In this document: positions 45,066-56,283 of the stretch, in pieces
How positions within the stretch are numbered: the first letter of the stretch is position 1
How the letters are laid out: every line of letters begins with the position of its first letter
NCBI GenBank assembly: GCA_964513515.1
Contig: CAZEMP010000003.1
Location: 40,927 to 104,926 of the forward strand
Length of the DNA: 64,000 nt
Source: an uncultured Candidatus Saccharibacteria bacterium
GTDB taxonomy: Bacteria; Patescibacteriota; Minisyncoccia; Phycocordibacterales; GWA1-40-21
Direction: 5' to 3'
Made by a program: the position numbers and the translations under genes
The notes under the pieces: generated by a model
Database searches by the model: none
Seen by the model: only the letters and a program-made list of their open reading frames with translations
What the model was told of the DNA's origin: nothing

Positions 45066-46166
45066 TTACTGATATTGAATATATATCGGTTGAGGAGTGA
45101 GCTCTAGTATTTCTTCTGGAGCCATCATTCCAAGACTCGGTTTCCATAGATCGTTTCTATAAAAGAGTTTAAACCCAGTAAATTGTACTGGTTCTTTATA
45201 AATATATTTTTTATATGAACTTAATTTATCAGATTTTTGACCCCATCCATCCATATGCATGACTATTTGTACTTCGGGCACAGTTTTTATAAGTTTATAG
45301 TTAGTGACCATCTCTTGTAAGTAGCGATGTATGATAAAAATTTTTGGTGTAAGATTATTTTCTTTTACTAATTGTGCTAAATAATCAGTAGCATAATTTA
45401 TCTCCTCCGCATCATAATTTCCAACATGAATTCCTGGAAGTCTCCCATTTTTCATGGAAAATTCAGGATCTATAGCCAAATGTACTTGAGGCATTTTTAA
45501 ATATTTTTCCAACAATGGTAGTTCTTCCTGAATTGTACTTTGACCTATTTGTATATCAAGAAAAACAATAGCATTTATTTTTTCAGCCATTGTCAATATT
45601 TTATTTATTTCAGTTTCTGGCATTCTGAGCCTATATTTTCCTTCTTCACCCGGTCTTGCCTGGGCTGTTACGGCAATATAATGTAAAGCGGGAACAGCTT
45701 GCGTATTTGGATCGGCAATGTTCCATTTTTGCACTTCAGCATCCAATTTTGCCAACATTTCTTCTTCTGGATATTCACCAAGTACACCCATAGATTTTGA
45801 CAGTAAGTTCCCATAGTATGCTATTACTCTTTTAAATGGCAATATTGCTCCAGCATTTGGATAAACAGTTTTTACCGGCCATAAAGCAGGCTTTGTAGAA
45901 GATGATACTGATGTCGTGCTAACCTTGGTTGTTGTAGTTGAAAACATTGTTGAAGTAGCAATATGTGCAAGCAAATTCAACCTCATATCATAATCTTCTT
46001 TGTCTAATGGTGGCAATTTTATGACAAAGTTATTTATCAAACGTCCGCTCCCATCTAATTTAAAAGAAATAGTTTTACTAAAAACAAAACCAGAGAGTAT
46101 CACCAAAAGTAAAACTACAGAAGTTATATATAGATGAATTTTTTTATTATCAACCACCTTTCTCAT
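45066..46166 (-). CDS. hypothetical exported/membrane-anchored protein, possibly TIM-barrel glycoside-hydrolase-like
   Basis: N-terminal TM, S/T-rich linker, about 270-aa globular domain with alternating beta/alpha pattern; no firm motif. Confidence 0.35.
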   Translation of the reverse strand: MRKVVDNKKIHLYITSVVLLLVILSGFVFSKTISFKLDGSGRLINNFVIKLPPLDKEDYDMRLNLLAHIATSTMFSTTTTKVSTTSVSSSTKPALWPVKTVYPNAGAILPFKRVIAYYGNLLSKSMGVLGEYPEEEMLAKLDAEVQKWNIADPNTQAVPALHYIAVTAQARPGEEGKYRLRMPETEINKILTMAEKINAIVFLDIQIGQSTIQEELPLLEKYLKMPQVHLAIDPEFSMKNGRLPGIHVGNYDAEEINYATDYLAQLVKENNLTPKIFIIHRYLQEMVTNYKLIKTVPEVQIVMHMDGWGQKSDKLSSYKKYIYKEPVQFTGFKLFYRNDLWKPSLGMMAPEEILELTPQPIYIQYQ

Positions 46167-46233
46167 GGTTTTATTTTAACATAGTAAAACACTCTAACAA
46201 AAGTTAGATTAGCAAATTATAAAATTAAATATT

Positions 46234-47451
46234 TCAAAAAATATTTTTCCACCAAGGAATCTTATTATTAATACTGTATATTTTTGAATAAGGATTGTTT
46301 TTATCAACTAATTGATCAGTAAATATTTTACTAGCAATATAGCTATAGGTGAGACCGTTTCCAGAAAAACCAAATGCATAAAAGATATTTTCACCATTTG
46401 CCTGCCCGGCCAGGGTTTCACCTATACAAGCTATTTTATTTACTGGTTCTGATATGGATCCGGACCAATGACGTACTTCCTCAAAGTCATTATTTTTAAA
46501 TAATTCTTTCGTATAATCTTTTATAACTTTTGAACCCAGCTCATGATCTATTTTAAGAGCGCTCAAATTGTCGTTCCCACCAATTATTAGACGGTCAAAA
46601 TCTGCTTTACTGTCTATCCTAAAATAATGATATGGTTTTAATGTATCCTCATACGTACCTTCACGCATAATATTTTTAGGAATTTTATATTCCACAACAT
46701 ATGAGCGGTACATATTGTATTTACGCTCGAGATGCGGTGGTTTTCCAAATGGCATATAGGTAGCTGAAAAAACTTTCTTTGCTTTTATGCCCGGCACATT
46801 TTCGATTTCAACAAGAACGCCTTCTTTTTCCTTTTTTAAGTTCAAGACTTTTGCATTTTCAGAAATTATAGCTCCATTTTTTACAGCTATTTGTGCAAGG
46901 GAATTGACATATTTTAATGCATGAAATTTTGCCTGATTAAATATTTCAATATAGCCAAAGCTATTAAATTTTAGCTTGTTATCCTTTTTATACTCAGCAT
47001 TTACTCCAAGACTTTTATATTTCTCAGTGAGTTTTAAAAGTAATTTTTCTTCCTTTTTTGAATTTGCATAAATATAGTTTGAACAACGTTCAAACTCACA
47101 CTCTATTTTTTCTGAAATTATTATCTTTTCAATCTCATCAATTGCATTTTGATGAGATTTAAAAATCTCTCGCGCCGTATCTTTACTATATAAACTAACA
47201 AGCTTACTGGGAGCAGTATCTAATATTTGAGTTAAAAATCCTGTGGTTGCGCAAGTAACAAACTCTCCGATCTCGTTTTTTTCTAGCAGTATAGGATTTA
47301 TTCCTTCTTTGGCTAATAAGTATGCACTTGTTATACCAGTGATACCACCACCAATTATTAATACGCCAGTTTTACTCGGTAGAGAAATAGGTGAGTAAAT
47401 TGCATGTTCTACACCCTCATGCCATATTTCATAATTTTCCTCACGAATCAT
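46234..47451 (-). CDS. FAD-dependent oxidoreductase (DAO family)
   Basis: GVLIIGGGITGITSAYLLAKEG Rossmann dinucleotide motif; ORF-track start 47496 overlaps upstream gene, ATG 47451 preferred. Confidence 0.7.
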   Translation of the reverse strand: MIREENYEIWHEGVEHAIYSPISLPSKTGVLIIGGGITGITSAYLLAKEGINPILLEKNEIGEFVTCATTGFLTQILDTAPSKLVSLYSKDTAREIFKSHQNAIDEIEKIIISEKIECEFERCSNYIYANSKKEEKLLLKLTEKYKSLGVNAEYKKDNKLKFNSFGYIEIFNQAKFHALKYVNSLAQIAVKNGAIISENAKVLNLKKEKEGVLVEIENVPGIKAKKVFSATYMPFGKPPHLERKYNMYRSYVVEYKIPKNIMREGTYEDTLKPYHYFRIDSKADFDRLIIGGNDNLSALKIDHELGSKVIKDYTKELFKNNDFEEVRHWSGSISEPVNKIACIGETLAGQANGENIFYAFGFSGNGLTYSYIASKIFTDQLVDKNNPYSKIYSINNKIPWWKNIF

Positions 47452-47942
47452 TATTTTACAATTATCTGAGCTTTCATAGATGGGTGAATGGAGCAAATAT
47501 AATCAAATGCTCCGGCTGTATTAAAGGTGAAAGAAAACGTTCCTCCTCTACTCATAACCGGACTTTTAAGCCCACTTAAATTATTTCCAACGACATCGTG
47601 TGGAGCAGAATCGTTGTTTGTCCAAACAACAGTGTCGCCTTTATTTATAATTAAAGATTTTGGATTAAAAGCAAAATTAACTATCGATACTTTATACGTT
47701 TTTGCTTCCACAATCTCAGTAGTTGGGGCTGGTTCCGTTTCTGTATTCACTACAGGGGTGGTATTTATAGGTGATTTCTCTGTTTGTGAATTTTGTGTTT
47801 GTTCTTTTGTTAAGGTCTCTGCTTGATCGACAGATGTTTGTCCACCACTCTCTTTTTGAACCTCAGATGGTTTAATAAAATAAAGTGCGCCAGAAATAAT
47901 TATTACAGCAATTAAAACATATATACTAATTTTATTATTCAT
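47451..47942 (-). CDS. secreted cupredoxin (blue-copper, plastocyanin/amicyanin-like)
   Basis: N-terminal TM/signal; copper ligands in APHDV ... YICSIHPSMKAQIIV (His, Cys, His, Met). Confidence 0.65.
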   Translation of the reverse strand: MNNKISIYVLIAVIIISGALYFIKPSEVQKESGGQTSVDQAETLTKEQTQNSQTEKSPINTTPVVNTETEPAPTTEIVEAKTYKVSIVNFAFNPKSLIINKGDTVVWTNNDSAPHDVVGNNLSGLKSPVMSRGGTFSFTFNTAGAFDYICSIHPSMKAQIIVK

Positions 47943-47978
47943 TTTTTTAAAATTAATTTTAATAATGTAAACGTAAAC

Positions 47979-48200
47979 TTAAATATATAATATAAAACCG
48001 AGTATCACATGAATTAGAACTAAAACAGAAAGTATCAGAGCGTTCAACTTATGGTATTTGAGCATGTCCGATCTTCCGTGTGTAAGCTTGTATCCCAAGT
48101 ACAATTGATAAATAAAACTAATAAGCGTTATTATATCGAGCCAAAATATTAAAGGTTTACCGATTATTATAAAAAACATAATGACAATTATATCATTCAA
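47979..48200 (-). CDS. small hydrophobic membrane protein
   Basis: 73 aa, two predicted TM helices. Confidence 0.3.
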   Translation of the reverse strand: MNDIIVIMFFIIIGKPLIFWLDIITLISFIYQLYLGYKLTHGRSDMLKYHKLNALILSVLVLIHVILGFILYI

Positions 48201-48415
48201 GTTTTATGTTTGCCAATATTATTCTTTTAGTATATGATTGTTTACACTATGGCAAAAAGAATGGCAGTAAATACTAAAAATAAGGCTTCTCGTTCTAAAA
48301 AAACGAGTAAGAGGCTAGCAATAAAAAATGCAAGAATTGCAGCTCGAAAAAGAATTATTAAATAATGTTTAAAAATTACTCCTTAATGGAGTAGTTTTTA
48401 ATTATAAATAACACA

Positions 48416-48808
48416 ATGACATATACTTGGTATTCACAATTGATTAAACCTTTTTTTGCACCACCTGCTTGGATATTTGGTCCGGTATGGTCAGTTTTAT
48501 ATGTTTTAATAACAATATCTTTTGGATATGTTTTCTACCTTTATTTTAAAGGCAGAATACCTTTTATTGTCCTTCTTCCATTTATATTTAATCTTATTTT
48601 TAATTTTGCTTTTACGCCCCTTCAGTTTGGCTTACAAAATAATTTTTTAGCTGCTATTGATATAGTCTTGGTTTTGGGAACACTTATTTGGTCTGTTTAT
48701 GGAATATTGCCTTATGCTTCTTGGGTTACATATATAAACATACCTTATTTACTTTGGGTATCCTTTGCTACAATTTTACAACTTACAATTACTTGGTTGA
48801 ACAGATAG
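48416..48808 (+). CDS. tspO: TspO/MBR-family tryptophan-rich sensory protein
   Basis: PPAWIFGPVWSVLYVL motif and 5-TM architecture. Confidence 0.75.
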   Translation: MTYTWYSQLIKPFFAPPAWIFGPVWSVLYVLITISFGYVFYLYFKGRIPFIVLLPFIFNLIFNFAFTPLQFGLQNNFLAAIDIVLVLGTLIWSVYGILPYASWVTYINIPYLLWVSFATILQLTITWLNR

Positions 48809-51682: not shown

Positions 51683-52390
51683 ATGAAATTAATTTTTTTA
51701 GATACAGAAACAACAGGAATAGAAATAGGTAAGGATAGGCTTTGTCAAATCTGCTATAAATACGCAGATGAAGTGAAAGCCGGATATTTTAAACCACCAC
51801 TACCTATGTCTGTGAAAGCTATGAGTGTTACTCATATCACAAACAAAATGCTTGAAGATAAGCAAGATTTTTCTAGTAGCGAAATGTTCAAGGAGTTGAA
51901 AAATCTTTTGAAAGACGGAATACTCGTGGCTCATAATGCACGTTTTGATATTTCCATGCTCGAATCAGAAGGTCTTAAAGTGCCAAAGTTTATATGTACC
52001 TTAAGAGTGGCGAGATTTTTGGATAAAGAAAATAAAATCCCAGAGCACAATCTACAATTTTTGAGATATTATCTAGATCTTAATATTGATGCTCATGCCC
52101 ATGACGCAAAAGATGATGTGAAAGTACTACACGCACTTTTTTATAGACTTTTAGATAAGATAAAAGAAGAAACAAAGGATGAGGATAAGGCAATAGAGAA
52201 AATGGTAGAGATCTCTGCAACTCCAACTTTATTTACAAAATTTAGCTTTGGCAAGTATAAAGATAAAACTGTAGAAGAGGTTTTTAAGAATGATAAAAAA
52301 TATTTAGAGTGGATGCTTGGCGAAAAGCTTAAAAATGAAGCTGGGGAAGAGGACTGGATTTATACTTTAAAATACTATTTAAATAAATAA
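51683..52390 (+). CDS. DEDDh 3'-5' exonuclease (DnaQ/epsilon-like)
   Basis: FLDTETTG (Exo I), LVAHNARFDISML (Exo II), HDAKDDVKVLHALF (Exo III). Confidence 0.8.
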   Translation: MKLIFLDTETTGIEIGKDRLCQICYKYADEVKAGYFKPPLPMSVKAMSVTHITNKMLEDKQDFSSSEMFKELKNLLKDGILVAHNARFDISMLESEGLKVPKFICTLRVARFLDKENKIPEHNLQFLRYYLDLNIDAHAHDAKDDVKVLHALFYRLLDKIKEETKDEDKAIEKMVEISATPTLFTKFSFGKYKDKTVEEVFKNDKKYLEWMLGEKLKNEAGEEDWIYTLKYYLNK

Positions 52391-52446
52391 TGACATTTTA
52401 AAATTTTTCTGTTAATCTTAATTATAGAAGGTCTTATGGAGGCGGC

Positions 52447-52617
52447 ATGTCTAAGTTAGATGATTCTATTTTTTGTGGCTGTGTTTGCCACAAGAATAAA
52501 GCCATAAAACATTGCATGCCGTGCTGTCAGCAATGTTTTAAGTGCTTTAAAAACATTAAGTTCGAACATTGGGAAAGTCACAACAAGACTTGTCCCAAAG
52601 TAGAGCCCTCACCTTAA
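52447..52617 (+). CDS. unannotated cysteine-rich 56-aa protein (11 Cys, 5 His)
   Basis: GGAGG SD 6 nt upstream of ATG; MSKLDDSIFCGCVCHKNKAIKHCMPCCQQCFKCFKNIKFEHWESHNKTCPKVEPSP; terminator immediately downstream; below ORF-track 60-aa cutoff. Confidence 0.5.
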   Translation: MSKLDDSIFCGCVCHKNKAIKHCMPCCQQCFKCFKNIKFEHWESHNKTCPKVEPSP

Positions 52618-52640
52618 AAGGAGGGCTTTCACTTTTCTTT
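52603..52640 (+). terminator. rho-independent terminator
   Basis: agccctc-(loop)-gagggct followed by ttcacttttcttt. Confidence 0.55.
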
Positions 52641-52675
52641 CATTTTATACAAAAATAATGTAATCTAGAGCATCT

Positions 52676-54127
52676 ATGGCTGATCACGGCGAGATTATAT
52701 TAAAATTTGAGGAAGTGTCTTTTGAATTTGGACACAATAAACCCATTCTTAATGAGGTAGATTTTACTGTACGTCGTGGAGCAAAGATCACTCTTATGGG
52801 TCAAAACGGCTCGGGAAAGAGTACTATTTTTAATCTTATAACTGGGCACTACAAACCAGAATCTGGAAAAGTACATATACAAAATAAGTTAACAATAGCC
52901 ACAGCGAAACAGGTTATTCCAAGATCGGATTTACATTTAACCGTAAAAGAATTTTTTGAAAAATGTTTTAAACATAAAGTTTATGATATTGAGCCAAAAA
53001 TTAAAGAGGTGCTTGATGTTGTAAATCTTAAGGCACCACTTGATAGGGAGGTAAAAACTTTTTCTGGAGGTCAGCAGGCAAGACTTCTTCTTGCTTCAGC
53101 ACTTATTCAAGATCCAGATCTTTTACTTTTAGATGAGCCGACAAACAATTTGGATAAGGCTGGTATCGCACATCTTACACAATTCTTAGTTGAATATAAG
53201 AAAACCTGTATTGTGATTTCTCACGATGCGGAATTTTTGAATGCTTTTACTCATGGTGTCTTATATTTGGATGTTCATACAAAAAAGATAGAGCAATATG
53301 TTGGAGACTATTTTGATGTTCGTGATCAGATTACGGCAAGAATAGAGAAGGAAAATATGAAAAATGCTCAACTGGCTAAAGAGATTCAAGAAAACAAAGA
53401 CAAAGCAAACTTTTTTGCCATGAAAGGAGGTCAGATGAGACTTGTAGCAAAGAGAATGAGAGAAAAAGCTGAAGAACTTGAAGAAGAGAAAGTAGATGTG
53501 AGAAGGGAGGATAGGACCATAAAGCCATTTAAAATACCAGCTCAATATGTACTTGGAGAAATTTTACACATTTCAGAGTTTGTGATTTTTAAGAATCATA
53601 AAAAAGTTGCTCGAAAGGCGAATATTTCTTTAAAGAAGAAACAGCATTTACTACTCACTGGTCCAAACGGCATAGGAAAGTCTACTTTGCTTGAATCACT
53701 TGCAAAAGGTGAAGCTAAGGGCGCAAAGATAGCAGACGGAGTAAAAGTCGGATATTATAGACAGGATTTCTCAACGCTCAATTTTGAAGACACTGTTTTT
53801 GATTCTTTGATGTCTGTGATGGATAAGCACATAGAACAAGAGATGAGAAATGTGGCTGCAGGATTTTTAATAACAGGTGATATGGTTTATACAAAAATCG
53901 GTAGTCTTTCAGAAGGACAAAAAGGACTTGTGGCTTTGGCCAGACTTGTTTTACAGAAGCCTGGACTTTTAATTTTAGATGAACCGACAAATCATATGAA
54001 CTTTCGCCATTTACCTGTTATAGCAAAAGCTCTAAGTGAATATGAAGGAGCAATGATACTCGTAAGCCACGTACCAGAATTTGTAAAACAAATAAGGATT
54101 GATGAAACTTTTGATTTGGAGAAATAA
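52676..54127 (+). CDS. ABC-F family ATPase (tandem NBDs, no TM domain)
   Basis: Two Walker A (GQNGSGKST, GPNGIGKST), two signatures (LSGGQQARLLLA, LSEGQKGLVALA), inter-domain linker. Confidence 0.8.
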   Translation: MADHGEIILKFEEVSFEFGHNKPILNEVDFTVRRGAKITLMGQNGSGKSTIFNLITGHYKPESGKVHIQNKLTIATAKQVIPRSDLHLTVKEFFEKCFKHKVYDIEPKIKEVLDVVNLKAPLDREVKTFSGGQQARLLLASALIQDPDLLLLDEPTNNLDKAGIAHLTQFLVEYKKTCIVISHDAEFLNAFTHGVLYLDVHTKKIEQYVGDYFDVRDQITARIEKENMKNAQLAKEIQENKDKANFFAMKGGQMRLVAKRMREKAEELEEEKVDVRREDRTIKPFKIPAQYVLGEILHISEFVIFKNHKKVARKANISLKKKQHLLLTGPNGIGKSTLLESLAKGEAKGAKIADGVKVGYYRQDFSTLNFEDTVFDSLMSVMDKHIEQEMRNVAAGFLITGDMVYTKIGSLSEGQKGLVALARLVLQKPGLLILDEPTNHMNFRHLPVIAKALSEYEGAMILVSHVPEFVKQIRIDETFDLEK

Positions 54128-54247: not shown

Positions 54248-55063
54248 ATGTCCAATAAGTCCCCGCCGAAGAAAGAAGTGTTTGGGGGTTACTTGAAAGA
54301 GTGCCTCCAGCATTTCACTAACTGTTTCAATTCACAGATAGTGAAAGGGTCAAAAAAAGCAAATATGACCAGGAGACCTATAGCTGACTTCTGTGGTGTA
54401 AAAACCTCGGCAGTAGCCACATGGTTCAGGTCTCAAAATCCACCTGTTGGGGAAGTGCTCATTAAGTTGATGTGCTATCTCGACATGATTGGATACCGAG
54501 TGATGGAGTTGGAAAAACTCGGTCGTGGTCATATGATCAGGCGGAATTTCATGGAGCTAGTTGGCTTCGGAATTCTGTCTGGTCCGAAGGCTGCTGAGCT
54601 TATCGGTAAGGTCTCTGCCCCGGGTTTGTATCAAGTATTTTGGGGTAGAGAGGGCCTTAGCGGTCAGAAGCAGCAGTTGATGTGGGACATTTGGAAAGTA
54701 CATCGGGAGGTGTTAGAGAAAAAAAAGGAAGAGTCGTGGCGATTGTATCGTCCCAGATTTTCTCTGAGGGCTATTCCCAAAGAAAAAAAATCTGGGCAAC
54801 AGGTGTTGACTTCTAAAGCTGCTGTTATACCACCTAATGGTGAAAAAACAGCAGTACCTGTTGGGCCGATCTTTCGCCAGAAAGCGGCGGTCAACATCAT
54901 GGAAGGATTATTGTGCTTGTTCAGGGAGGGTATGTTTGAAAACCTCTCGGAAAGTGAGCTCAAGATCCTGAAAGAGTCACCAGCCATGAAGACGTTCTTT
55001 GACCTTTCAGCTCGTTTGGGCTTGTTATGCTCAAAGCTGGATCGGCGGTTGGTGAAACGTTGA
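54248..55063 (+). CDS. XRE-type helix-turn-helix protein with uncharacterised C-terminal domain (GC-rich island ORF A)
   Basis: AAAGGAGG SD; HTH RRPIADFCGVKTSAVATWFRSQNPPVGEVLIKL; about 48-50% GC. Confidence 0.5.
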   Translation: MSNKSPPKKEVFGGYLKECLQHFTNCFNSQIVKGSKKANMTRRPIADFCGVKTSAVATWFRSQNPPVGEVLIKLMCYLDMIGYRVMELEKLGRGHMIRRNFMELVGFGILSGPKAAELIGKVSAPGLYQVFWGREGLSGQKQQLMWDIWKVHREVLEKKKEESWRLYRPRFSLRAIPKEKKSGQQVLTSKAAVIPPNGEKTAVPVGPIFRQKAAVNIMEGLLCLFREGMFENLSESELKILKESPAMKTFFDLSARLGLLCSKLDRRLVKR

Positions 55064-55368
55064 TGATGATCGAGGAGGTCAGTGGAAAGACCATGCCAAG
55101 TAACGAGAGTTATGAAGCAATGGTTGAAAAGGTTATACCGGAAGGTCCTCACGGACCATACGGTGTTGCCCGATCGGAAAAATTGGACGGATCAATTACT
55201 TTCTCGCTAAACAAACCAGTTTGGCAAGAAATTTATCCGCCCGATTCTGGGACAATAGTGATATTGTCTCAAATCCGAAAGAAACGTGCTGGTTGGCGTG
55301 CCAACTATGCACGCTTCGTGACGCCCGATGATGTAACGAAAAGTAAGCTTGGAGGATGGTACAAATAA
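55063..55368 (+). CDS. hypothetical protein (island ORF B), translationally coupled to ORF A
   Basis: ATG overlaps ORF A stop (TGATG); alternative SD-led start MPSNESYE; ORF-track start 55027. Confidence 0.4.
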   Translation: MMIEEVSGKTMPSNESYEAMVEKVIPEGPHGPYGVARSEKLDGSITFSLNKPVWQEIYPPDSGTIVILSQIRKKRAGWRANYARFVTPDDVTKSKLGGWYK

Positions 55369-55447
55369 GTAAAACGTGATGGATGATTTATCAACCAGTC
55401 ATGTTTATGAACATCAACCAGAAGTTTAAGGAGCAAGGAGAAACAGC

Positions 55448-56224
55448 ATGAAGATCGTGAAAGTGCAGTTGAAGGATCTGAAGACGAACCTGTTCGTTCG
55501 ACAGGCGCTCAACCAAGACCACGCGCTTCGTCTGGCCGAGCTGATCGATGCGGGGGTGAAGCTCCCGCCGATCTTGATCACGGATCAGAGGGTCGTCATC
55601 GACGGCCGCCATCGCATCGAGGGGTACGATCTCAACAAGGTCCTCGAAGTCGAGGCCGAGGTCATCCACGTCGACAGCCAGGCCGACATGATCGCGAGGG
55701 CCTTCCTGGCCAACGTCGGAGGCGCGCTGCCGCCGACGAAGGAGGACTTGGAGCACACGGTGAAGACCATGCTCGAGCTCGGCGAGAGCAAGAAGAGCAT
55801 CGCGGAACGGCTGAAGCTCCCGATGGGCTTGGCTCGGAAGTACGTCAATTCCGTGCAGGCACGCATGATGCACGCGAAAAACGAGCGGGCCATCTCGGCC
55901 GTCTTGAACGGCGGGATGAGCGTGGCCAAGGCCGTGGAGTTGCACGGGGCGGACATGGCCGCGGTGAAGCACAAGCTCGGCGGCGGTCGCAAGCCGAAAA
56001 AGGGCATCCAGGAGATGCACCGGGCGCTCACCCAGACCCAGAAGTCCTTCGGTTCGAAGAATGCCGCGCTCTTGCGCAGCCTTCTCGAGAAGTACGAGGA
56101 CGGTGAGGTCTCGGCCAAGCAGGTCCAGGAGATCATCGAGCACCTCGAAGACCTCCAGCGCGGGCAGGCCCGCAACCTGGCCGACTGGAAGAAGCGGTTC
56201 AACGGGCTGTTCAAGAAAGCCTAG
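55448..56224 (+). CDS. ParB-like nuclease (ParB/Srx N-domain) + HTH protein (island ORF C)
   Basis: LPPILITDQRVVIDGRHRIEG ParB-box-like; HTH SIAERLKLPMGLARKYV; about 63% GC; AAGGAG SD. Confidence 0.6.
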   Translation: MKIVKVQLKDLKTNLFVRQALNQDHALRLAELIDAGVKLPPILITDQRVVIDGRHRIEGYDLNKVLEVEAEVIHVDSQADMIARAFLANVGGALPPTKEDLEHTVKTMLELGESKKSIAERLKLPMGLARKYVNSVQARMMHAKNERAISAVLNGGMSVAKAVELHGADMAAVKHKLGGGRKPKKGIQEMHRALTQTQKSFGSKNAALLRSLLEKYEDGEVSAKQVQEIIEHLEDLQRGQARNLADWKKRFNGLFKKA

Positions 56225-56241
56225 TTCAACCACTGAAATAC

Positions 56242-56283
56242 AAATGCCCCGGACGCGCTTGCGCGTCCGGGGCATTCTTTTTA
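56242..56283 (+). terminator. GC-rich hairpin terminator ending the island
   Basis: aaatgccccggacgcgc-tt-gcgcgtccggggcattt + ctttttta. Confidence 0.8.

Follow-up and report, generated by a model that had tools for sequence, protein, structure and literature searches.

The bacterial metallothioneins SmtA and BmtA are proteins of about 56 amino acids that hold a Zn4Cys9His2 cluster, and SmtA contains a zinc-finger-like sub-fold. The Pfam families Cys_rich_CPCC, Cys_rich_CPXG and Cys_rich_KTR likewise consist of small bacterial proteins that stand alone and carry conserved Cys motifs. Here we describe a Cys/His-rich open reading frame (ORF) of 56 amino acids in a 64,000-nucleotide stretch of DNA (the window) from an uncultured Candidatus Saccharibacteria bacterium (contig CAZEMP010000003.1, positions 40,927 to 104,926), where it lies between genes for an ExoX-like exonuclease and an ABC-F ATPase. 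An earlier reading of the window, made from the letters and their translations (the sequence-only reading), had singled out this ORF and proposed several roles for it. The reading that we favor, and hold to be reasonably probable, is that it is an accessory gene, acquired horizontally, whose product is a stand-alone mini-protein of the Cys8His3 multi-zinc type, in which a rigid metal core carries a variable partner-binding surface. The 'PCC' of the Cys_rich families is superficially reminiscent of this peptide, and SmtA and BmtA are close to it in size.

The ORF, the domain that it encodes and the signals on either side of it are as follows, in window positions.

52447 to 52617 (stop codon included), + strand: Cys/His-rich ORF, 56 amino acids (MSKLDDSIFCGCVCHKNKAIKHCMPCCQQCFKCFKNIKFEHWESHNKTCPKVEPSP), from translation and homologue search.
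52474 to 52593, + strand: Cys8His3 domain of about 40 residues (residues 10–49), CxCxCH-x6-H-x3-CC-x2-C-x2-C-x11-H-x3-C, from alignment and an AlphaFold2 model.
52534 to 52593, + strand: C-terminal C2HC beta-beta-alpha finger (C30-x2-C33-x11-H45-x3-C49), from spacing, AlphaFold2 and weak profile matches.
52438 to 52442, + strand: GGAGG, a Shine-Dalgarno (SD)-like motif 4 nt before the ATG, read from the sequence.
52597 to 52635, + strand: GC-rich hairpin with the TAA stop in its loop and a T-rich tract after it, from folding and shuffles.

The translation is exactly the one quoted in the sequence-only reading, and its ATG is the first available start after the upstream in-frame stop. The peptide contains 9 Cys (positions 10, 12, 14, 23, 26, 27, 30, 33 and 49) and 4 His (positions 15, 22, 41 and 45), not the 11 and 5 that had been counted. 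The remark that the ORF is unusually dense in Cys holds: at 16% it stands at the top of the 169 window ORFs with an ATG start and at least 40 amino acids, the runner-up having 10.6%. Its GC content had been given as about 40% and above background; it does lie above background, but at 37.4%, a slight rise only over the window (33.8%) and the local sequence (~32%). An identical sequence is present on a public metagenome contig at ENA, on which the ORF was not called as a gene. An Rfam scan of the ORF region gave no match.

To find relatives, we ran phmmer with the 56-residue peptide as query against 1.84 billion representative proteins. At a cut-off of E<1e-3 this returned 58 relatives (best E = 1.6e-10), most of them 50–80 amino acids long. 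Such a search for Cys-patterned relatives was the first check named in the sequence-only reading, and it recovers the same Cys/His skeleton, CxCxCH-x(5-9)-H-x3-CC-x2-C-x2-C-x(10-12)-H-x(3-4)-C/H, in 56 of the 58, five of the relatives having it twice, in tandem. Ten columns are invariant in an alignment of 61 family members (A1): C10, C12, C14, H15, H22, C26, C27, C30, C33 and H45. Position 49 is either Cys or His, while C23 and H41 of the window peptide show no conservation. The window ORF keeps all 11 ligand positions of the skeleton, is 31–51% identical to the family members in A1, and ends in a PSP-type tail that is common to three relatives (P0003, P0005 and P0011).

The family was also collected from DNA, with a degenerate pattern for the first nine ligands of the skeleton, so that H45 and C49 were not pre-selected. 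This pattern matched 22 IMG/VR contigs, about 18 of them genuine and ranging from 27 to 67% GC, and more than 120 metagenomic stretches among the matches listed. False positives were low-complexity repeats of the TGC/CAC type, which translate as poly-Cys/His (L089, L098, L131, L152, L156, L158 and L165). A hidden Markov model (HMM) built from A1 gathered at least 180 distinct domain instances. H45 is found in 162 of 180 instances, the remainder being gaps; at position 49, 130 instances have Cys and 16 have His. The hosts of the family loci span 27% to 70% GC, and conservation therefore acts at the protein level. We are highly confident that the ORF truly belongs to a conserved family of metal-binding proteins.

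Substitutions at the ligand positions are rare and are mostly swaps between His and Cys (H22 to C, C49 to H, C27 to H), which argues that these residues are metal ligands and not disulfides. AlphaFold2, run on A1, gave a model with a mean predicted local distance difference test score (pLDDT) of 84 and a predicted template modelling score of 0.61, with pLDDT at 89–92 over residues 11–50. The model has a beta hairpin (strands 27–29 and 36–38) followed by a helix (39–48). The hairpin turn holds C30 and C33 and the helix holds H45 and C49, the layout of a classic C2HC beta-beta-alpha finger. Similarity to known structures is confined to this half. A profile search of PDB sequences returned marginal matches only (E 0.003–0.09), all to the C-terminal half: TRAFD1/FLN29 (0.003), the UBZ4 finger of RAD18 (0.009), LYAR, Sgf11 and WRNIP1. 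Foldseek found nothing at E<0.5 in the PDB and among viral models, its top entries, non-significant at E>1, being fingers of TRAF4, Cep104 and Sgf11, and two of the 61 family members weakly touched zf_UBZ or Sgf11 models (E about 1e-3). The metal-binding mini-protein of the sequence-only reading is thus upheld by 11 near-invariant Cys/His at fixed spacing, the swaps among them, a confident model and weak C2HC finger matches. Its 'zinc ribbon' was the wrong fold name.

From the ligand pattern, the domain would bind several zinc ions in its fold, three being the most plausible number. The C-terminal C2HC knuckle (C30, C33, H45 and C49) would hold one of them, and the remaining seven ligands (C10, C12, C14, H15, H22, C26 and C27) may form a compact N-terminal cluster. 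With 11 ligands for a presumed three metals, one ligand or more should be shared, or a coordination position left open. Just upstream of one tandem version of the gene (in contig L133) lies an extra, degenerate one-domain paralogue. It has lost C14, H15 and H22 and kept the other eight positions. In the second repeats of tandem proteins, C14 has become Y or F together with a change of H22 to C. These changes are a weak hint, from one lineage, that C14, H15 and H22 may belong to one separable site.

The CC-x2-C-x2-C stretch raises a different possibility, a tiny redox protein with one or two Fe-S clusters on this stretch and other Cys. C27-x2-C30-x2-C33 resembles the ferredoxin-type CxxCxxC triad, and eight Cys are invariant. 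However, the likeness stops at the triad and does not extend to a CxxCxxCxxxCP motif, and neither Fer4 nor any other Fe-S family matched at E≤1. Three invariant His, the swap of C49 to His, and a C-x2-C...H-x3-C arrangement on a predicted hairpin and helix are features of zinc fingers, and zinc fingers are the only neighbors found by sequence or fold. We consider an Fe-S protein very improbable.

The relatives live in uncultured phages, in elements with an integrase and on cellular contigs that resemble Patescibacteria. The domain occurs singly, in tandem, or fused to enzymes, with N-terminal fusions to thymidylate kinase (Tmk; L107, 1798–2289), to a YspA-type SLOG/DprA-like domain (L091, 5947–6471) and to YunG (L108, 5676–6248). 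One homologue overlaps the start of a phage integrase gene. Others are found among very short ORFs with genes for HTH_17/excisionase-type or transposase-type helix-turn-helix (HTH) proteins, or near a Y1 transposase. On the IMG/VR contigs, the family gene is packed co-directionally in small-gene modules, with neighbors that include ThyA, dihydrofolate reductase (DHFR), Acb1, the beta sliding clamp, class II ribonucleotide reductase (RNR), a PD-(D/E)XK nuclease, FolE2, a Macro domain protein and RuvC. Two T4-like viral contigs (L105, 934–3560, and L100) share the order ThyA, small ORF, Cys gene, DHFR, Acb1, the last being a phosphodiesterase that acts against the cyclic-oligonucleotide-based antiphage signalling system (CBASS). 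A 66-kb cellular contig from groundwater, which also encodes arginyl-tRNA synthetase, has a complete thymidylate cycle (L171, 3515–7170), with dUTPase and serine hydroxymethyltransferase (SHMT) divergent from the Cys gene, ThyA and DHFR. The tandem-domain version is syntenic in three contigs that resemble the candidate phyla radiation (CPR; L133, 4113–7731, L174 and L184, one of them 565 kb long). It is flanked there by UvrC and a TruB-Sua5/YrdC fusion (398 aa, two tRNA-modification domains), and in one contig by a dUTPase as well.

No universal partner emerged when 230 neighbor proteins from 79 distinct loci were clustered all against all. Of 86 loci, 6 independent ones have genes for deoxynucleoside triphosphate (dNTP) synthesis close to the Cys gene, compared with 1 of 80 background Patescibacteria loci, a comparison that is partly circular, as the queries came from Cys loci; the window has no such gene. 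Phage and mobile-element gene pools and CPR bacteria are the typical home of the family, whose connection with DNA-precursor and DNA metabolism is loose and serves as a lead only. Short members have net charges from -7 to +14, so the surface is not conserved and carries no general nucleic-acid-binding signature; an analysis of charge and isoelectric point across family members found no consistent basic character. We picture a conserved metal core that would display a fast-evolving surface for binding a protein or nucleic-acid target, and a protein that would act as a small adaptor or modulator rather than an enzyme. A more specific form of this proposal is doubtful: that the family is a structurally new tri-zinc Cys8His3 domain, with a binuclear or open-site N-terminal cluster next to the C2HC knuckle, which serves as a dedicated accessory factor of thymidylate/dNTP or DNA-metabolism machinery in uncultured phages and CPR bacteria, for example as a regulator, an assembly or adaptor subunit, or a phage counter-defence. 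It draws on the Tmk fusion, the cluster of dUTPase and SHMT with Cys gene, ThyA and DHFR, the T4-like contigs in which a small ORF and the Cys gene stand between ThyA and the DHFR-Acb1 pair, and the RNR and clamp neighbors.

These contexts also bear on whether the peptide could be a metal buffer or detoxification peptide analogous to SmtA and BmtA, as the sequence-only reading had suggested in calling it metallothionein-like. The peptide resembles them in size and in the number of its ligands (11 conserved Cys/His in about 56 residues), and several metal ions would be expected. But neither Metallothio_Pro nor any other Pfam family matches, and the spacing of Cys and His in the window peptide differs from that of SmtA. 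No metal sensor or transporter is linked to the gene in the window or among the relatives. Modules of phage replication and nucleotide metabolism, together with the Tmk, SLOG and YunG fusions, are ill-suited to metal homeostasis, and the rigid spacing and confident beta-beta-alpha fold suggest structural sites. A metallothionein-like role is accordingly unlikely, though less so than a redox one.

The third role in the sequence-only reading, the precursor of a ribosomally synthesised and post-translationally modified peptide (RiPP), would suit a small Cys-rich ORF with an MFS transporter gene two genes upstream. However, the only neighbors in the window are the MFS, ExoX and ABC-F genes; genes of the radical-SAM, YcaO, lanthipeptide, cyclodehydratase or peptidase kind, or anything similar, are absent, and the 79 loci yielded no recurrent partner gene. 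What is conserved is one compact domain with a confident fold, not a leader followed by a variable core. This domain is also found in tandem and fused N-terminally to enzymes, and the His/Cys swaps favor metal ligation. A RiPP precursor is hardly credible on these grounds.

The genes and the conserved element next to the ORF are the following.

51683 to 52390, + strand: ExoX-like DEDDh exonuclease, the upstream neighbor (Pfam RNase_T and ExoX-like_C).
52633 to 52678, + strand: conserved ABC-F upstream block (TTTTCTTTCATTTT...TAATGTAATCTA...ATG), from a DNA alignment of relatives.
52676 to 54127, + strand: core ABC-F ATPase, the downstream neighbor (two Pfam ABC_tran domains; NCBIfam ABC-F family).

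The ABC-F protein is 70–90% identical in 80 species-level Patescibacteria genomes, and the family motif was found within 4 kb of ABC-F in none of these 80 loci. About ten close relatives retain the synteny from ExoX to ABC-F, with a gap that varies from ~45 to 1750 nt and holds differing small genes. The ~45-nt block upstream of ABC-F is kept in relatives that lack the ORF (L003, L005 and L008, and weakly L010), and the same block follows other cargo in L002, L007, L009 and L015. In the window and in L002, L003, L005, L007, L009 and L015, differing GC-rich hairpins abut this block and a T tract. The block is seen before ABC-F in many Paceibacterota genomes, the group from which the window comes, and each time a lineage-specific GC-rich hairpin stands directly in front of it. 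ABC-F therefore has an upstream element of its own, insulated by terminators from the genes upstream. The block is likely a promoter or a short SD-less leader; a scan for the sigma-70 consensus did not call it. The slot 5' of the ABC-F element is a hot spot for cargo insertion. Other cargo in this slot comprises a ~155-aa protein (L002, L004 and L015), a protein of 55–70 aa that starts with MNFLK or similar (L002, L006, L007 and L015), a 211-aa protein (L004) and a 124-aa protein (L009). The N-terminus of ABC-F itself differs in length among close relatives: in L003 and L005 about 11 more residues follow the start than in the window, L008 and L010.

In this setting the ORF would be horizontally acquired cargo, a 243-bp cassette of SD motif, ORF and hairpin (~52391–52633) placed in the slot between ExoX and ABC-F. 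Flanking direct repeats or transposon ends were looked for around the 243-bp insert, and none were seen. The hairpin at 52597–52635 has a folding energy of -17.1 kcal/mol (z = -3.8), and 0 of 200 shuffles folded equally well. A simple terminator scan did not call it, because its loop is 10 nt long and its T run is interrupted. It probably serves the ORF and the upstream operon as an intrinsic terminator. Where the sequence-only reading had placed a hairpin terminator immediately after the ORF, there is a strong hairpin followed by a T-rich tract; it spans the stop codon and escapes the simple scan. Consensus scans of the region found no + strand promoter just upstream of the ORF. The gene is probably co-transcribed with the MFS and ExoX genes or expressed from a weak promoter of its own, and transcription would end at the hairpin before ABC-F.

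The position of the ORF immediately 5' of ABC-F had reminded the sequence-only reading of leader or regulatory small ORFs. Such a leader would control ABC-F by translation-coupled attenuation at the hairpin, as in the ABC-F operons of antibiotic resistance. The end of the ORF does lie within a hairpin that resembles a terminator, at a distance of 58 nt from the ABC-F start, and the best NCBIfam model for the ABC-F protein is the generic 'ribosomal protection-like ABC-F', at a score below its cutoff. Pairing of the ORF with ABC-F in related genomes, which had been named as a check, is however absent (0 of 80 loci within 4 kb), and relatives without the ORF keep the ABC-F upstream block behind unrelated hairpins of their own. 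The hairpin slot thus belongs to the upstream cargo, and control of ABC-F is independent of it. Among possible attenuator structures we saw one stable hairpin and a weak 76% inverted repeat (I1, 52457–52473 with 52651–52667) that is probably due to chance. Known stalling leaders are short, and a 56-residue peptide with a structured domain is unlike them; the peptide family is a folded domain found in many unrelated contexts. We give a leader function almost no credence: the ORF adjoins ABC-F through an accident of insertion, not as its regulator. For annotation, the lesson is that proximity to ABC-F is no evidence of a leader peptide.

Is the cassette at home in its host? We counted SD-like 4-mers (GGAG, GAGG or AGGA at -18 to -4) before the 54 window ORFs that reach 150 aa or more: 3 have one, on a par with the random background (~8%). 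The ExoX, MFS and ABC-F genes of the window all lack an SD motif. The host lineage seems to initiate translation without SD. Elsewhere, 32 of 67 family genes have an SD motif, against a background of ~8%. The full GGAGG precedes 0.7% of random positions. Overall the window has 60 GGAGG on the + strand and 19 on the - strand, a threefold difference that is consistent with its purine skew. The GGAGG of the ORF is an outlier in an SD-poor window, which fits a foreign origin. The 'strong' ribosome-binding site of the sequence-only reading is there as a motif, but it is atypical for this host and does not by itself prove efficient translation.

Foreign origin also leaves room for a non-functional relic: a fragment that was transferred not long ago, has stayed intact by chance and is neither expressed nor used by the host. 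Among the 80 relatives only this strain, with the identical contig, has the ORF. An SD motif is out of place in this SD-poor host, the + strand shows no promoter-like site directly before the ORF, and selection cannot be read from a near-orthologue, as there is none. Against this, the 11 ligand positions, the start codon and the PSP-type tail are all intact, and the gene is a compact cassette with its own terminator, directly behind an operon that permits co-transcription. We consider a relic unlikely, if somewhat less so than a metallothionein.

Several observations weigh against an acquired multi-zinc mini-protein in active use. The closest relatives of the window copy are only ~45–54% identical, and purifying selection on it is not demonstrable for want of a near-orthologue. 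The zinc stoichiometry and the grouping of ligands are proposals from the sequence pattern, and the CC-x2-C-x2-C stretch could in principle hold an Fe-S cluster. As for function, no conserved neighbor at the 79 loci points to a target, and the association with dNTP metabolism is weak (6/86 against 1/80) and absent from the window.

Other parts of the window show unusual content of their own. Directly downstream of ABC-F lies an island of higher GC (54248–56276, 48% against ~33%) that encodes proteins of 271 aa (weak HTH_3) and 113 aa and a ParB-like protein of 258 aa (phrog_1033), and that ends in a perfect 16-bp inverted repeat (56243–56276). The HTH protein of the island has no counterpart in the 80 related loci. 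It has the appearance of another stretch of foreign or mobile DNA, distinct from the cassette and also flanking ABC-F. Further upstream, 45066–48805 holds genes for a cupredoxin/plastocyanin-like protein, an FAD-dependent oxidoreductase and TspO/MBR, which are atypical of minimal CPR genomes.

We asked whether the domain had been catalogued before. The window peptide matches no Pfam family at E≤1, and scans of the peptide and family members against Pfam, PHROGs and NCBIfam found no model for the full domain. A word-indexed homologue search returned nothing for the single peptide and, with the alignment, 10 proteins, all without names. With the low-complexity filter on, tblastn gave no match for three members in 50,697 GenBank phage records, nor for one member in 72,556 GenBank plasmids. 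The motif string was found in no paper of the library searched, and broader concept searches of the literature gave nothing relevant. The N-terminal module, CxCxCH...H...CC with its seven invariant ligands, has no detectable counterpart. None of the libraries searched catalogues the domain with all 11 ligands, its distribution or its architectures. Its C-terminal half is a zinc finger of a known type.

A compact and strongly conserved multi-metal domain is absent from Pfam, PHROGs, NCBIfam, the PDB and records of cultured phages, yet common in uncultured phages, mobile elements and Patescibacteria. Small proteins are systematically overlooked, and the uncalled ORF on the identical public contig is a case in point. 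If characterised, the domain would be a new architecture for zinc binding that packs 11 ligands into 40 residues, and it might expose a small adaptor or regulator in the nucleotide or DNA metabolism, or in the phage-host conflict, of uncultured organisms.

How does this family compare with described metal-binding proteins? The Cys_rich_CPCC, Cys_rich_CPXG and Cys_rich_KTR models do not match it at E≤1. SmtA and BmtA belong to metal-regulated loci, whereas members of the present family are found in phage and DNA-metabolism modules. CXC/pre-SET domains (Zn3Cys9) and Gal4-type Zn2Cys6 clusters are alike in having a dense CxC run and too few ligands for independent tetrahedral sites. They share no sequence similarity with the family, however, whose invariant set includes His and whose formation of such a cluster is hypothetical. 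The nearest likeness is to C2HC fingers of the UBZ4, TRAF and Sgf11 types (RAD18, WRNIP1, TRAFD1/FLN29, TRAF4, Sgf11 and LYAR), which have the same C-x2-C-x11-H-x3-C spacing and the predicted beta hairpin and helix. The matches to them are marginal, extend over about 23 residues and stay below the HMM thresholds of those families, and the seven-ligand N-terminal module is found in the ORF family only. No ubiquitin system is evident in the window. The known fingers are eukaryotic and bind ubiquitin, proteins or nucleosomes, while the family to which this ORF belongs is one of phages and bacteria.

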